From the NCBI GenBank assembly GCA_041649175.1, contig JBAZNR010000001.1, forward strand, positions 7,461 through 71,460: a DNA stretch of 64,000 nucleotides. Reading direction: 5' to 3'. A program made the position numbers and the translations under genes. Position 1 is the stretch's first letter, and each line of letters starts with the position of its first letter. Source of the stretch: Candidatus Omnitrophota bacterium. GTDB taxonomy: Bacteria; Omnitrophota; Gorgyraeia; Zapsychrales; JBAZNR01. The notes under the pieces are model-generated. The model had not been told where the DNA came from, searched no databases, and saw only the letters and a list, made by a program, of their open reading frames with translations. Positions 38,674-64,000 of this stretch are shown piece after piece.

Positions 38674-40071
38674 TTAGTGCGCTGTTTCAGAAGAAATGTT
38701 GAATTGGATTTTCTGCGCGGCCACACAAACACCCATCATGATCCACATAAGATTTCCCAATTGCACCGAATAAAAATTTGTGTCAACAAAACTATGCGCC
38801 AAAAATCCGATCAGGCCCGATAAAGAACCCAAAAGTACGGCAAGTAAAAATTTATCAGACATAAAACGGATGCCCTTAAATGAATTCCAAATGAGGGCAT
38901 AAATGATCCATAAAAACGCAAAGAGGCCAAAGAATCCCATTTCCGCAGTCAATTGTAAATAACAATTGTGAGGATACCCACCCAGGCGACGATCATGGGA
39001 TACGCGAGTATACGTATTTAAGCCTGTTCCAAATGGAAAATCTTTGATGATCTTAAACGAGTTTTTCCAAAATTCCACACGCCCGCTGCCAAAAACCGGA
39101 ACATTCTCGCCAAGCTCAACCTGCTTTGTTCCGTTATCCTCTGCCTTTTTCTTGATCACCTTTAACTCCTGCTGAATTTTCACATTTTCAGAAACGAAAG
39201 ACACGTTCCTCTTCAATTCTAATTGCGGAAAAAAGAAAAGCAGAAATATAATAATAGTCGGAATGGATGCCTTTAGTGTCTTGGGCCATAAGACACCCAA
39301 GAAAATAAAAGCTGTAAAAAATCCCAACCAAGCTCCTCGGGAAAAAGTTCCTCCCAGTGATAAAAAACAAACGATAAGCAGAATTGAGAAAAAGATCTTC
39401 TCAACATACGGAGAACACAGCGTCTTTTTCTTGTCTTGTGTTAAACAAGGATTAAATCCGCCGACAAAAACAAAATTAAACATTAAAGAGAAAGCAATGA
39501 TCAAATAAGCACCAAAATCATTAGCTGTCCTAAACGACGCTGTCAGCCGATCTCCGGGAAACGGATTATGACGAACAAAATCAAAGCCGATAAACTGCTG
39601 CAGATAACCGCTTACCGCCGTTACTAAGGCCGAAAAAATAAAAACACCCATAAAAACCTTAAGACGCTTAAGGCTGGTCATTACTTCAATGAAAATAAAA
39701 CAAAGAAAGGTCCATTCTAACAGTTTAAAGAAGAAGCCTTGAAAACTTAACAAGTGATACTGGCTCAAAATGACCGATGTGAAGCCAGCAAGAATAAAAA
39801 CAGAGACCGGTCTTCTTAGATAGCTAGGGACGGGTAAAAACGTGCGGATAAAAAGCTTTGTTTTCTCGAGAAAAGAATTTCTGGAGCCTCTCAAGGAGGC
39901 GTTTTTTGATTCAAAATAAAAAATAACACCCCTCTTAATAAAAAAACAAAGCTGAATAGCCCCCGCAAAGATCTCTTGCAAGGCAATCGAGATAGGCAGA
40001 AAAAAGATCAAGGCACAAAAAGAAAAAGCCATCACTTGGTCAATACGATTTATTATTTTTTGATCATTCAT
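38674..40071 (-). CDS. O-antigen ligase / Wzy_C-family polytopic membrane protein
   Basis: 465 aa, about 12 TM helices. Wzy_C signature region GGTFSRGAWLGFF ... HNCYLQLTAEMGFFGL. Confidence 0.7.
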   Translation of the reverse strand: MNDQKIINRIDQVMAFSFCALIFFLPISIALQEIFAGAIQLCFFIKRGVIFYFESKNASLRGSRNSFLEKTKLFIRTFLPVPSYLRRPVSVFILAGFTSVILSQYHLLSFQGFFFKLLEWTFLCFIFIEVMTSLKRLKVFMGVFIFSALVTAVSGYLQQFIGFDFVRHNPFPGDRLTASFRTANDFGAYLIIAFSLMFNFVFVGGFNPCLTQDKKKTLCSPYVEKIFFSILLIVCFLSLGGTFSRGAWLGFFTAFIFLGVLWPKTLKASIPTIIIFLLFFFPQLELKRNVSFVSENVKIQQELKVIKKKAEDNGTKQVELGENVPVFGSGRVEFWKNSFKIIKDFPFGTGLNTYTRVSHDRRLGGYPHNCYLQLTAEMGFFGLFAFLWIIYALIWNSFKGIRFMSDKFLLAVLLGSLSGLIGFLAHSFVDTNFYSVQLGNLMWIMMGVCVAAQKIQFNISSETAH

Positions 40072-40087
40072 AACAAAATGAGTGTCC

Positions 40088-41035
40088 TTATGAACCTACA
40101 AGCCTAGTTTTTTCATACCAAGCAACTGTCTGCTTTAGGCCTTTTCTAAAATTTACCTTAGCCGTAAAGCTAAATTCTTTCTTAGCTAAAGAAACGTCCA
40201 AACACCGACGAGGCTGTCCGTCCGGCTTTGAGCGGTCCCAAACGATCCTCCCTTTAAATCCCGCCAATTCAGCAATAAGATGAGTTAAATTCCGGATCGA
40301 AATCTCAAACCCCGCGCCAATATTCACCGGATCAGATTTATCATACTTCTCTGCCGCCGCAATAATTGCGCGGGCCGCATCTTTCACATACAGAAATTCT
40401 CTGGTAGGCTTACCCGTTCCCCAAACCGTAATTGATTTTTCTTTCCTTAACTTTGCATCAACACATTTTTTAATGAGGGCCGGAATAACATGGGATGACT
40501 CCGGTGAAAAATTATCCCCGGGGCCATAAAGATTGACGGGAAGAAGAAAAATAGAATTAAAGCCATACTGTTGGCGATAGGCCTGAGACTGCACTAAAAG
40601 CATTTTTTTGGCAAGGCCGTAAGGAGCGTTGGTTTCTTCCGGATAACCGTTCCAAATATCTTTTTCCTTAAACGGAACTTGGGTCAATTTCGGATAGGCG
40701 CAAATAGTTCCTAGGGCAACAAACTTTTTAACACCCAAAACCCTTGATTCCTCCATAAGCTGAGTGCCCATAATAAGATTATCGTAGAAAAATTTTCCGG
40801 GATTGGCGCGATTGGCCCCTATTCCCCCAACGGAAGCGGCCAGATGGATCACAATATCCGGCTTAGTTCTTTTAAGCATAAGCCGAATATCGTCAACACA
40901 GCGAAGATCAAATTCTTTTTTTCGCGGGACAAAAATACTGCGGCATTTTTTCTCTTTTAATTGCGTAACGACATACTGGCCTAGAAAACCGGCACCGCCC
41001 GTAACCACGACCTTCTTAATATTCCAAAATCCCAT
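40088..41035 (-). CDS. fcl: GDP-L-fucose synthase (GDP-4-keto-6-deoxy-D-mannose 3,5-epimerase/4-reductase); could alternatively act as a ColC-like GDP-3,6-dideoxyhexose synthase
   Basis: [14 protein letters not shown] Rossmann motif, catalytic SxxxxxY...K (NAPYGLAKK). Length and overall pattern of Fcl. 1-nt junction with gmd. Confidence 0.85.
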
Positions 41036-62406: not shown

Positions 62407-62420
62407 TATTCTGTGGCCTT

Positions 62421-63794
62421 CTAATTTCGTTTTCGCAGCGCATCAATGATTCCATCGGCAACAATTTTGTATCCCCGCTCGTTAAAATGAGCTCCTTTTT
62501 TCGGATAGATCTCTAACGGGTTCTTTATTTTACGAAATGATTCAGATAAATCAATAGCAGGAATCGACAAGTCCCTAACAATGGCCATGACTGCATCGTG
62601 ATCCGAAAGATAACTCATAAATGGAACAGGAAGATACACGAAAATAAAGTCCCCGCCCCAAGAAGTTGTCTTGTCGCGCTCTATTGTCAAAGCCTGTCGC
62701 AAGGCCTTATAATCCTCTCTTAGAATTTGCCCTTTCTGTTTCCAATTCTTTAGCTCAGCAATGCCCTCAACCAATCTTTCCTGTGTTTTTCTAAGAAGCA
62801 GCAGCTGAAGCCATCTTTGATAGATCATATGATCTGACTGGCGTGCGTCCTTGACAAAACTGTTTATCCCTTCATACGCCTTGTCTATTTCAGACTGGGC
62901 AAAATAAAGGTTCTGTGTAAACGTCGGGTCTAAATATGAGCGCAGTAATTCCTCTTGCTCCACGCGCCTCAGGGTATTCTCGGTATAAACCCATAAAACA
63001 ATTTTTGGCTTTAAAACCTCAACATATTCTCGAAATATGGCTAACCGCATAAGCGGGCCGGCGCCCCCCATTCCAAAATTAATTGTTTTTTGATCGTATG
63101 TATTTCTTATCTGCGATGGAAAATCTTTTCCGGGGTCAACACAATATCCATGCGTAAACGAATCGCCCAAAATCGCGATATTAACATCTCCGGGGTGATA
63201 TAACCCTTTCGGATTATTAAACCCATGTTCGTCGCTCTCATAAATACTCCATGGCCCTCTTTCTTTGCACAAAATTGTTGTTCGCTGCGAAACACCGCTT
63301 AAAGGAATCCTTTCCTTTTTATCAACACGAAAAGGAAATATGTTCGCATTTTTTGTCCGCGCGGACTCAGTATAAATAAGCGTGGCAGTAGGGACAAAAA
63401 GAACCGCGCGCTTGCCTTCTTGCGTTAAATCATGAAGCACTTGCAAGTCGGAGCGAAAATCAACATTGTCCCGGGTAGATATTCTATCCCAAGGCCATTG
63501 AAGAAATTCAAAAATATAGAGGGTCAATAAAACAGACGCGATCACTAAAGAACTATTGATTTTAAAGTTCTTAAAGCGAGGTGTTCTTTGGATAATTAAC
63601 AATCCCGCTATTAGCACGGGAATGATAAAAACGATCTTTCGTGATAGAGGCTTGATGACCGGATAACGGATAGCAAGATACAAAAAGACAACGCTTAACA
63701 GCAGAATGAACAAAAGAATAACAGCATCCGCAAATCTTTCTGCGGCCTTCGGAAAGTGTCCTTGACTATCTCTCATAATGTTTTTCTCAACCAT
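62421..63794 (-). CDS. Membrane-anchored SGNH/GDSL-hydrolase-family protein (putative polysaccharide O-acetyl-transferase/esterase, AlgX/AlgJ-like)
   Basis: Three N-terminal TM helices. Block I NIAILGDSFTHG, Gly block FGMGGAG, and a C-terminal Asp/His-containing region. Embedded in the glycan operon. Confidence 0.6.
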   Translation of the reverse strand: MVEKNIMRDSQGHFPKAAERFADAVILLFILLLSVVFLYLAIRYPVIKPLSRKIVFIIPVLIAGLLIIQRTPRFKNFKINSSLVIASVLLTLYIFEFLQWPWDRISTRDNVDFRSDLQVLHDLTQEGKRAVLFVPTATLIYTESARTKNANIFPFRVDKKERIPLSGVSQRTTILCKERGPWSIYESDEHGFNNPKGLYHPGDVNIAILGDSFTHGYCVDPGKDFPSQIRNTYDQKTINFGMGGAGPLMRLAIFREYVEVLKPKIVLWVYTENTLRRVEQEELLRSYLDPTFTQNLYFAQSEIDKAYEGINSFVKDARQSDHMIYQRWLQLLLLRKTQERLVEGIAELKNWKQKGQILREDYKALRQALTIERDKTTSWGGDFIFVYLPVPFMSYLSDHDAVMAIVRDLSIPAIDLSESFRKIKNPLEIYPKKGAHFNERGYKIVADGIIDALRKRN

Positions 63795-64000
63795 TCTCTA
63801 ACTTAAGCCTCAAGGTCAAACTCTTCTGAAGCTTAAGCTCTTCATCTATAAGTAAGCGGATCAACTGAGCAAAATCAATTTTCGGCTGCCAACCAAGCTT
63901 GGCTTTTGCTTTTTTAGGATTTCCATAAATAACCTTAATATCCGCCGGACGGAACAGTTTCTTATCAATCACAACATATCTTTTCCAATCAAGCCCAAGG
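63787..64000 (-). CDS. gmd: GDP-mannose 4,6-dehydratase paralogue, C-terminal fragment (the gene continues beyond the window end)
   Basis: Minus-strand translation: LGLDWKRYVVIDKKLFRPADIKVIYGNPKKAKAKLGWQPKIDFAQLIRLLIDEEL. This aligns with the C-terminus of the Gmd at 41035..42054: [53 protein letters not shown]. Confidence 0.7.
   Translation of the reverse strand, partial: LGLDWKRYVVIDKKLFRPADIKVIYGNPKKAKAKLGWQPKIDFAQLIRLLIDEELKLQKSLTLRLKLENG

Follow-up and report, generated by a model that had tools for sequence, protein, structure and literature searches.

A pgk-linked envelope-glycan locus with three Wzy_C-family membrane proteins in a Candidatus Omnitrophota bacterium

The stretch analysed here, which we call the window, comprises 64,000 nucleotides from the genome of a Candidatus Omnitrophota bacterium (GenBank assembly GCA_041649175.1, contig JBAZNR010000001.1, positions 7,461 to 71,460 of the forward strand). 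Its right-hand part (38674-64000) holds 22 complete genes and one gene cut by the window end, all of them glycan-related according to the open reading frame (ORF) listing and the Pfam and NCBIfam scans. This run of genes begins right at pgk (37362-38543; PGK match of 535 bits), on the upstream side of that gene, and reaches the end of the window, and it encodes three membrane proteins of the Wzy_C/WaaL family, to which we refer as WzyC1 (38674-40071), WzyC2 (42089-43408) and WzyC3 (60006-61535). The window also supplies one initiating polyprenyl-phosphate glycosylphosphotransferase (PGT), one Wzx-type flippase and at least eight glycosyltransferases (GTs); with three candidates from the Wzy_C family, this is the gene complement expected of a Wzx/Wzy locus, and we consider it very likely that the region directs the synthesis of a Wzx/Wzy-dependent cell-envelope glycan of the O-antigen or exopolysaccharide type.

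Layout of the locus and recurrence of its frame

All genes of the locus lie on the minus strand except 45224-47089, which lies on the plus strand behind a divergent gap of 348 bp; elsewhere, neighbouring genes overlap by up to 8 nt or are separated by up to 70 nt. A sequence-only reading of the window had described about 25 genes arranged head-to-tail with overlaps of 4-8 nt; the dense packing holds, whereas the common orientation and the regular overlaps do not. The same reading expected the run to continue past position 64000. This was borne out by a Logan contig (L081), identical to the window across the 9,000 bases compared (55001-64000), which lengthens the locus by at least 8.4 kb, to window-equivalent position 72406, and thus to at least 34 kb in total. 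The extension contains the remainder of a gmd-like gene, three GT4 genes, three methyltransferase genes, wecB (329 bits, against a cut-off of 210) and another gene of the DegT family. About 72 kb of sequence are thereby covered, and the far boundary of the locus lies past them.

The nearest relatives of the PGK protein (59-69% identity) all come from metagenome-assembled genomes (MAGs) of Candidatus Omnitrophota, some of which are labelled "Planctomycetales" or plain "bacterium" in the databases. Database entries 100% identical to proteins of the window bear the name "Candidatus Omnitrophota bacterium". Seen by PGK and synteny, L001-L004, L008, L011 and L015 group with Omnitrophota under the public name "uncultured Planctomycetales bacterium", and such labels on Omnitrophota-like MAGs are probably taxonomic mislabels.

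We compared the window with 12 informative pgk loci of relatives and with loci reached via Wzy_C homologues. A backbone of the order WzyC3…GT4…WecG–PGT–WzyC2–gmd–fcl–WzyC1–pgk is present in five of the 12 pgk loci, all of distant relatives, and recurs where PGK is just 61-68% identical. One of these loci, L018, reads WzyC3 (C-terminal end, at the edge of the locus)–GT4–…–WecG–PGT–WzyC2–gmd–fcl–WzyC1–pgk–tpiA–secG–SBP5. Another, L088, reads GT2–WzyC3–SDR–NTP–…–WecG–PGT–WzyC2–gmd (SDR, short-chain dehydrogenase/reductase; NTP, NTP-transferase), with the NTP–SDR–WzyC3 block as in the window, and subsets of the backbone are found in L087, L012, L017, L001 and L004. Identity among positional orthologues is 31-37% for the Wzy_C proteins and reaches 52-81% for WecG, PGT, gmd and fcl, which indicates faster divergence of the former. 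The interior cargo differs between genomes. Here, about 10 kb of lineage-specific cargo extend from the fusion gene 45224-47089 to a GT-C-like gene (55560-57077) and include, besides the fusion gene itself, the whole block from a ColD-like gene (47819-49039) to the GT-C-like gene.

Because the backbone recurs in distant Omnitrophota genomes, we regard the region as a conserved locus and not as a foreign island, and we hold with considerable confidence that it is a chromosomal, vertically inherited envelope-glycan locus whose conserved frame encloses a rapidly changing interior. The presence of three Wzy_C genes in one locus had been taken as unusual, which does not apply within the phylum: glycan loci of Omnitrophota often contain several such genes or have them in tandem (L085, L088, L018).

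Three proteins of the Wzy_C family

WzyC1 (465 aa, encoded directly upstream of pgk) and WzyC2 (439 aa) pass the gathering threshold of the Pfam Wzy_C model (PF04932, 31.7 bits) with 73.8 and 78.7 bits, respectively. WzyC3 (509 aa) scores 24.4 bits, with a match that covers just the C-terminal half of the model. The earlier assignment of all three proteins to this family is thus confirmed by Pfam for the first two, whereas the third falls under the threshold and joins the family on the other evidence given below.

WzyC1 and WzyC2, each with 8-11 hydrophobic segments, are paralogues (31% identity over the full length, E 1e-50), and an alignment of WzyC1 orthologues matches the WzyC2 family with an hhalign probability of 100%. 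Positional orthologues of WzyC1 adjoin pgk in L012, L017 and L018; R245, R331 and H368 are invariant among the WzyC1 orthologues, and their correspondence is shown by alignment to WzyC2. The WzyC2 gene starts with TTG (43408), preceded by an AAGGAG motif and located 4 nt past the stop codon of the PGT gene. Its family is uniform in length (410-450 aa, 37-49% identity) and bears the recorded name "O-antigen ligase family" in Omnitrophota. Comparison of the WzyC2 family with WaaL from Escherichia coli K-12 yielded an hhalign match (E 2.5e-4) across 211 columns, in which R231/R292/H339 of WzyC2 align exactly with R215/R288/H338 of WaaL; these WaaL residues are reported to matter for function, and PglL conserves them as well (PMC3643930). 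The NCBIfam RfaL model (PRK15487) also matches WzyC2 (E 8e-15), and gives no match to WzyC1 or WzyC3 at 1e-3.

For WzyC3 we found 344 homologues at E<=1e-3. All those with an organism name belong to Omnitrophota, one further named homologue being a hydrothermal-vent metagenome record, and about 60% of the 344 carry a precomputed PF04932 match. An alignment of 48 sequences revealed R197, R368, W372, H418, N419 and Y426 as invariant residues of the family. Profile comparison with the WzyC2 family (hhalign probability 89%, E 2e-6) extends over the Wzy_C core and encloses R368 and H418, and R197 would be the counterpart of the first catalytic Arg. The AlphaFold2 (AF2) model of WzyC3 (pLDDT 86, pTM 0.84) was compared with the PDB using Foldseek, which identified WaaL from Cupriavidus metallidurans (7TPG) as the sole credible structural match (E 1.9e-3, probability 1.0, TM-score 0.54; all others E >2); sequence searches of the PDB with the three Wzy_C proteins gave nothing meaningful. 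The spread of PF04932 matches among the homologues, the invariant Arg/Arg/His residues, the profile match and the structural match lead us to the conclusion that, as judged from profiles and a predicted model, WzyC3 is a true distant member of the Wzy_C/WaaL family.

The periplasmic loop of WzyC3 measures about 186 aa, whereas WzyC1 and WzyC2 have one of about 80-90 aa, so that the hydrophilic insert attributed to this protein by the sequence-only reading (about 150 aa) shrinks to an extra loop of about 100 aa. Residues 292-349 of the loop have pLDDT <50 and are predicted to be disordered; members of the WzyC3 family range from 472 to 802 aa, and the loop region is variable in length.

With WaaL of E. 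coli K-12 and C. metallidurans, the proteins described here share the polytopic build and the Wzy_C core, in addition to the aligned Arg/Arg/His residues of WzyC2 and the proximity of the WzyC3 model to 7TPG. They differ from WaaL in their remote sequences, in the extra, partly disordered loop of WzyC3, and in the location of their genes, which occur as three copies in one locus and not in a core-lipopolysaccharide (waa) operon. No signal was obtained when the WzyC3 and WzyC1 families were compared by hhalign with E. coli WaaL, nor when the WzyC3 and WzyC2 families were compared with the E. coli K-12 Wzy polymerase (WbbH). Polymerase and ligase roles are not separable by such comparisons with E. 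coli references.

Sugar routes, glycosyltransferases and radical-SAM enzymes

As for the remaining genes, the inventory made from the sequence alone was essentially right: one PGT, one Wzx, a GT26, two GT4, a GT2, a GtrB-like GT2 and a weak GT-A-like protein, and for sugar activation gmd, fcl, a ColD-like member of the DegT family, two more SDRs and an NTP-transferase. It had missed two genes for radical S-adenosylmethionine (SAM)/SPASM proteins (45224-47089 and 53587-54591) and the GT-C-like gene 55560-57077.

The PGT (43413-44876) is a large protein of the WbaP/WcaJ type (TIGR03025 421 bits, cut-off 295; Bac_transf 231 bits plus a CoA_binding_3 domain), with syntenic orthologues that are 53-61% identical. 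The WecG/TagA/CpsF-family (GT26) glycosyltransferase (47048-47812; PF03808 212 bits) probably adds the second sugar; its syntenic orthologues (52-63% identical) are encoded next to the PGT gene. Two GT4 enzymes are encoded at 50012-51181 (Glycos_transf_1 100 bits) and at 57082-58269 (Glycos_transf_1 106 bits); the latter belongs to the conserved backbone and has orthologues in L001 and L018 (41-44% identity). A GT2 enzyme is encoded at 61606-62406 (Glycos_transf_2 103 bits). The 302-aa protein encoded at 51242-52150, without a predicted transmembrane (TM) segment, is a weak GT-A-like candidate: its Pfam matches are all sub-threshold or borderline (GNT-I 22.9, Glycos_transf_2 23.8 bits), and the NCBIfam scan found no match for it. 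The flippase (52196-53539) is a Wzx-type member of the MOP superfamily (Polysacc_synt 87 bits, cut-off 28.2; Polysacc_synt_3 78 bits).

Between WzyC1 and WzyC2 lie the genes for a GDP-L-fucose synthase-like SDR (fcl, 40088-41035) and a GDP-mannose 4,6-dehydratase (gmd, 41035-42054). The former matches NF047922 over its full length with 297 bits, under the 500-bit cut-off, and the latter passes TIGR01472 with 547 bits (cut-off 415); their syntenic orthologues are 66-75% and 76-81% identical, respectively. The end of the window cuts through another gene for a gmd-like dehydratase, whose 3' part lies inside (63797-64000); the whole of it (334 aa, L081:7616-8620) scores 367 bits with TIGR01472, against the cut-off of 415.

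The DegT-family protein encoded at 47819-49039 resembles pyridoxamine phosphate (PMP)-dependent sugar 3-dehydratases of the ColD/E1 type. Its nearest PDB sequence is GDP-perosamine synthase (3BN1, E 4e-57, 197 bits); ColD scores 143 bits. At the position of the catalytic Lys in the "ffgnKiittgegg" segment of perosamine synthase it has His192, and since this Lys-to-His change defines the sugar 3-dehydratases E1, ColD and SpnQ (PMC8987622), the ColD-like assignment is supported. The next gene, whose frame overlaps that of the ColD-like gene by 8 nt, encodes an extended SDR (49032-50066; GDP_Man_Dehyd 202 bits, Epimerase 149 bits), a candidate ColC-like reductase/epimerase that could complete a 3,6-dideoxyhexose route. 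The set is reminiscent of the colitose pathway of E. coli O55/O111 (Gmd–ColD–ColC), with which it shares a gmd-type gene, a DegT protein with His in place of Lys and an adjoining SDR gene, and from which it departs in the greater similarity of the DegT protein to GDP-perosamine synthase than to ColD. A further pair consists of a sugar-1-phosphate nucleotidylyltransferase (58294-59010; NTP_transferase 128 bits) and a LegB-like NAD-dependent nucleotide-sugar 4,6-dehydratase (59003-59995; TIGR04180 475.5 bits, cut-off 475). A full legionaminic-acid pathway around the latter was considered and rejected, as no synthase genes of the LegI, LegF or LegG type were seen in the window locus or in its extension.

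Two adjacent genes suggest a decoration module. The first (54584-55543) encodes a GT2 of the PgfS/ArnC/GtrB type, i.e. a polyprenyl-phosphate sugar synthase-type enzyme (PgfS 309 bits, ArnC 181 bits, both full-length), with TM helices at residues 234-286. The second (55560-57077) encodes a 505-aa GT-C-like polytopic membrane protein with about 10 TM segments followed by a soluble C-terminal tail of about 120 aa; its sole match, a weak one, is PMT_2 (18.7 bits, cut-off 26.1). The latter is presumed to be a periplasmic transferase that would use the undecaprenyl-phosphate-linked sugar made by the adjacent GT2. The pairing of a GT2 carrying C-terminal TM helices with a large polytopic membrane protein is as in the GtrB/GtrC, ArnC/ArnT and PgfS systems; the differences are the weakness of the PMT_2 similarity of the membrane partner and the lack of a GtrA-like flippase gene, none of which was seen in the locus. 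Another possible modifying enzyme is the membrane-anchored SGNH/GDSL-like protein encoded at 62421-63794 (457 aa, three N-terminal TM segments; Lipase_GDSL_2 32.7 bits, cut-off 32.9), which may be involved in O-acyl modification of the glycan. In public gene calls it starts six codons later (451 aa).

The plus-strand gene 45224-47089 encodes a 621-aa fusion of a BtrN-like radical-SAM domain with a Gfo/Idh/MocA domain. In all relatives compared, the PGT and WecG genes adjoin, and the fusion gene stands between them just in the window; it is a lineage-specific insertion on the opposite strand. The N-terminal domain matches BtrN (4M7T, E 8e-27; query residues 35-278 with chain residues 18-256), all seven cluster cysteines being aligned. 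In the AF2 model (pLDDT 83.5), the C-terminal domain superimposes on WlbA (3Q2K) with a TM-score of 0.82, and it is also structurally close to GnnA, GenD2 and KanD2; its dinucleotide-binding motif is atypical (G-A-S-x-S-A, not GxGxxG). Among 12 aligned homologues of the fusion, C211, C229, C274, C277, K389-P390 and H476 are invariant, and the CX3CX2C motif (C54/58/61) is nearly so, lacking just in a truncated model (P0011). The public NCBI gene model of the fusion starts 64 codons late, whereby this motif is lost. The architecture is rare: a set of 5.8 billion proteins gave 12 clusters with it (90% identity), and one of 1.84 billion gave four representatives (50% identity). BtrN-like proteins that stand alone (~250-310 aa) are frequent, and a few Gfo halves (~300 aa) also occur on their own. 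The homologues occupy unrelated glycan loci (L082, L083 and L092), the one in L083 being a public 567-aa model upstream of which an in-frame stop is met. A literature search, shallow and incomplete in coverage, returned no description of a BtrN–Gfo/Idh/MocA fusion.

BtrN is a radical-SAM 2-deoxy-scyllo-inosamine dehydrogenase, all seven cluster cysteines of which are retained in the fusion, and the C-terminal domain resembles the sugar 3-dehydrogenases WlbA, WbpB and GnnA, of which WlbA acts as UDP-GlcNAcA 3-dehydrogenase. In AprD4/AprD3, a radical-SAM enzyme and an NADPH-reductase act as a pair on a sugar (PMC5461906). By analogy with BtrN and with this pair, one might speculate that the fusion couples oxygen-independent oxidation of a sugar hydroxyl to nicotinamide-dependent oxidoreduction, with net epimerisation or a second oxidation as the outcome. 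Unlike in BtrN, WlbA and AprD4/AprD3, both activities would reside in one chain, encoded in a surface-glycan locus and not in an aminoglycoside cluster.

The second radical-SAM/SPASM protein (53587-54591, 334 aa, twitch-like; Radical_SAM 38.7 bits, SPASM 36 bits) is encoded in the interval that separates Wzx from the GtrB-like GT2. Its sequence contains a CX3CX2C motif (C47/51/54), and it has a PCSR…C…CxxC pattern in common with the twitch domain of the fusion; sequence search of the PDB found no relative of it. Other Omnitrophota glycan loci (L085:15109-21321 and L086:16894-18306) contain up to four radical-SAM genes, some of them for B12-binding proteins, in the neighbourhood of Wzx, tandem WzyC3-type genes, PMT_2-type GT-C proteins and methyltransferases. 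Radical-based sugar tailoring looks like a phylum-wide theme of Omnitrophota.

The left 38 kb of the window are of housekeeping character, with lepA, cmk, aromatic amino-acid genes, scpB, ruvA, the RNase P RNA gene, rpoD, dnaG, smc, fabV, an opp transporter, secG, tpiA and pgk. The RNase P RNA is of bacterial class A (11038-11466, minus strand, 164.6 bits); the mechanically called ORF 11400-11852 overlaps it and may be spurious, and genes for tRNA-Val and tRNA-Met follow at 12646-12851. Amid the housekeeping genes, on the strand opposite to its neighbours, lies a gene for a NodU/CmcH-type carbamoyltransferase (13046-14869, plus strand, 607 aa). The 769-aa protein encoded at 28371-30680 (minus strand) has eight predicted TM segments in its N-terminal half, for which no Pfam match was found, and C-terminal TPR repeats; we see in it a possible further transferase for envelope glycans or lipids whose gene lies away from the locus.

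Assembly of the glycan and competing explanations

By homology of its components, the pathway would begin with the large PGT, which is expected to start the glycan on undecaprenyl phosphate, and continue with extension by the GT26 enzyme WecG/TagA, several GT4 and GT2 enzymes and the GT-A-like protein. Activated sugars would come from a GDP-fucose route (gmd and fcl), from a colitose-like 3,6-dideoxyhexose route (gmd-type dehydratase, ColD-like 3-dehydratase and SDR), from the NTP-transferase and the LegB-like dehydratase, which could yield a 6-deoxy-4-keto sugar, and from wecB, just past the window end, as a likely source of N-acetylmannosamine (ManNAc). Wzx would then flip the lipid-linked unit to the periplasmic face. 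There, the GtrB/ArnC/PgfS-like GT2 and the GT-C-like protein may add single-sugar decorations; acyl and methyl groups may be contributed by the SGNH protein and the methyltransferases, and the two radical-SAM enzymes may carry out oxygen-free tailoring of sugars. Given that a single PGT and a single Wzx are encoded in about 34 kb, we interpret the locus as one pathway rather than several. In line with an envelope-glycan role, genes for an O-antigen ligase and for lipopolysaccharide synthesis have been reported independently from a polysaccharide cassette of Omnitrophota (bioRxiv 10.64898/2026.05.20.726742).

That the three Wzy_C proteins divide the work between them, as suggested by the sequence-only reading, is plausible, since they form two clearly different families and keep the Arg/Arg/His residues in all. 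WzyC3 is a candidate for the polymerase, because its gene is surrounded by variable GTs, its sequence diverges rapidly and its length is not constant. WzyC2 may be the ligase that passes the glycan to the final acceptor, probably lipid A-core, because its gene lies beside those of the PGT and WecG, because conservation is higher in it than in the other two, and because its Arg/Arg/His residues align with those of WaaL. Its paralogue WzyC1 could be an additional ligase that serves a different donor or acceptor. We propose this joint assignment tentatively, giving it somewhat less than an even chance. A comparable case is mentioned in a passage of PMC3643930, according to which the genome of Yersinia enterocolitica encodes three homologues of WaaL; as may apply here, these WaaL-family genes differ in their roles, but they are dispersed there, whereas here, in an unrelated phylum, they share one conserved locus. 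As for Wzy polymerases such as WbbH and WzyE of E. coli, the similarity lies in the setting: a locus with a PGT, Wzx and multiple GTs needs a polymerase, and WzyC3 has the typical surroundings, rate of change and variable length. The dissimilarity lies in the lack of detectable resemblance of the WzyC3 and WzyC2 families to WbbH and of a Wzz partner.

Several observations weigh against this account. The split of roles rests on the pattern of conservation, on gene position and on weak homology, and no sequence test tells polymerases from ligases. WzyC2 scores 54.8 bits with the RfaL model, far under the equivalog cut-off of 277. Among all ORFs of at least 80 aa between 38.6 and 72.4 kb there is none for Wzz, Wzc or Wza, which may lie elsewhere in the genome, and no lipid A or core gene occurs in the ~72 kb seen. 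Lastly, about half of the relatives (L002, L007, L008, L009, L016 and L020) do not have the backbone on the upstream side of pgk.

One alternative is that at least one of the Wzy_C proteins is an O-oligosaccharyltransferase (O-OTase) of the PglL/PilO type, so that the locus, or part of it, serves to glycosylate proteins and not lipid A. The family as such would allow this: PF04932 spans WaaL ligases and O-OTases, and the Arg/Arg/His residues are common to both, including PglL, PilO and TfpO (PMC3643930). The close paralogy of WzyC1 and WzyC2 suggests two acceptors, a PgfS-like GT2 and a PMT_2-like GT-C protein are present, and the genes for lipid A and core are not nearby. However, PglL_A (PF15864) and Wzy_C_2 (PF11846) have no match at E<=1 in any of the three proteins, a negative to be read with the HMMER filters in mind, which discard most matches above E ~0.1; the PglL_A model is also known to miss PilO, which makes its absence weak evidence. 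There is moreover no adjoining gene for a pilin or another candidate acceptor protein, all neighbours being glycan genes or pgk. The Wzy_C genes also reside inside a glycan locus, in contrast to pglL genes, which have been reported to lie outside lipopolysaccharide loci (PMC3643930). The PglL-type assignment brought up by the sequence-only reading finds no positive support, and we consider it improbable. A composite scheme appears similarly unlikely, in which the conserved Wzy_C genes would supply one polymerase, one ligase for lipid A-core and one enzyme that transfers to protein or another second acceptor, all acting on one lipid-linked glycan that also carries a sugar made by the radical-SAM–Gfo fusion. 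The fusion might then treat a nucleotide sugar by oxygen-independent oxidation and a subsequent stereo-inverting reduction, or by two oxidations.

All three proteins could alternatively be Wzy polymerases for two or three different polymers, with the ligase encoded elsewhere. In favour of this, more than 10 glycosyltransferases and at least four sugar-nucleotide routes are present, Wzy polymerases are often Wzy_C-positive, and L085 has a tandem pair of WzyC3-type genes. Yet the single PGT and single Wzx argue for one pathway, the 211-column alignment of WzyC2 with WaaL includes the three functional residues, and the WzyC2 family is uniform and well conserved, unlike typical polymerases. We therefore view this possibility as rather doubtful.

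The sequence-only reading had spoken of a glycan "island", and it remains to weigh the proposal that the whole region upstream of pgk was acquired horizontally and varies between strains. What would be expected in this case is found in part: the cargo differs between relatives, the insertion of the radical-SAM–Gfo gene is unique to the lineage, the locus does not occur upstream of pgk in the six relatives listed above, and the preprint cited above describes, for another genus of Omnitrophota, a hypervariable O-antigen/capsule cassette with genes for an O-antigen ligase and a heptosyltransferase (bioRxiv 10.64898/2026.05.20.726742). On the other hand, the composition of the locus is indistinguishable from that of the housekeeping flank: its GC content is 0.408 against 0.424, its GC content at third codon positions (GC3) 0.420 against 0.437 (p=0.08), and codon usage in the two parts is correlated at 0.92. 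The comparison of GC and codon usage, which had been suggested as a check for horizontal acquisition, thus gave no foreign sign. No tRNA gene, integrase gene or repeat was found at the boundary by pgk, and both the backbone and the pgk-tpiA-secG link are conserved in relatives with 61-68% PGK identity. The question whether related genomes would show a conserved core locus instead of a variable island has a mixed answer, since the backbone is conserved, the cargo is variable, and about half of the relatives lack the backbone at this site. Altogether, acquisition of the whole region as an island seems quite unlikely, and the term does not fit a locus whose frame is shared with distant relatives.

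That the Wzy_C proteins are IctB-like bicarbonate transporters is hardly conceivable, despite TIGR00947 being the top NCBIfam match of WzyC1 and WzyC2 and the JGI name "putative inorganic carbon transporter" on some WzyC2 homologues, because the scores (53 and 81 bits, cut-off 366) fall far short of the cut-off and reflect the common Wzy_C domain, and because the gene context is that of glycan synthesis throughout.

We thus return to the Wzx/Wzy-dependent envelope-glycan locus with a conserved frame as our reading of the region. The locus itself is a fairly ordinary representative of a known type and does not overturn the current understanding of glycan assembly; its modest novelty lies in the Omnitrophota-specific WzyC3 subfamily and in the rare BtrN–Gfo fusion. 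The WzyC3 family is mostly invisible to Pfam and its members are annotated as "hypothetical", so that their recognition improves the annotation of hundreds of proteins. The rare fusion, together with the abundance of radical-SAM genes in such loci, points to uncharacterised oxygen-independent tailoring of sugars. The bacteria of this phylum have not been cultivated; they are very small and probably depend on hosts, and to our knowledge nothing has been established experimentally about their surface. The pgk-anchored locus with its three Wzy_C genes offers a starting point for predicting the surface chemistry of Omnitrophota, and a marker for comparing their lineages.

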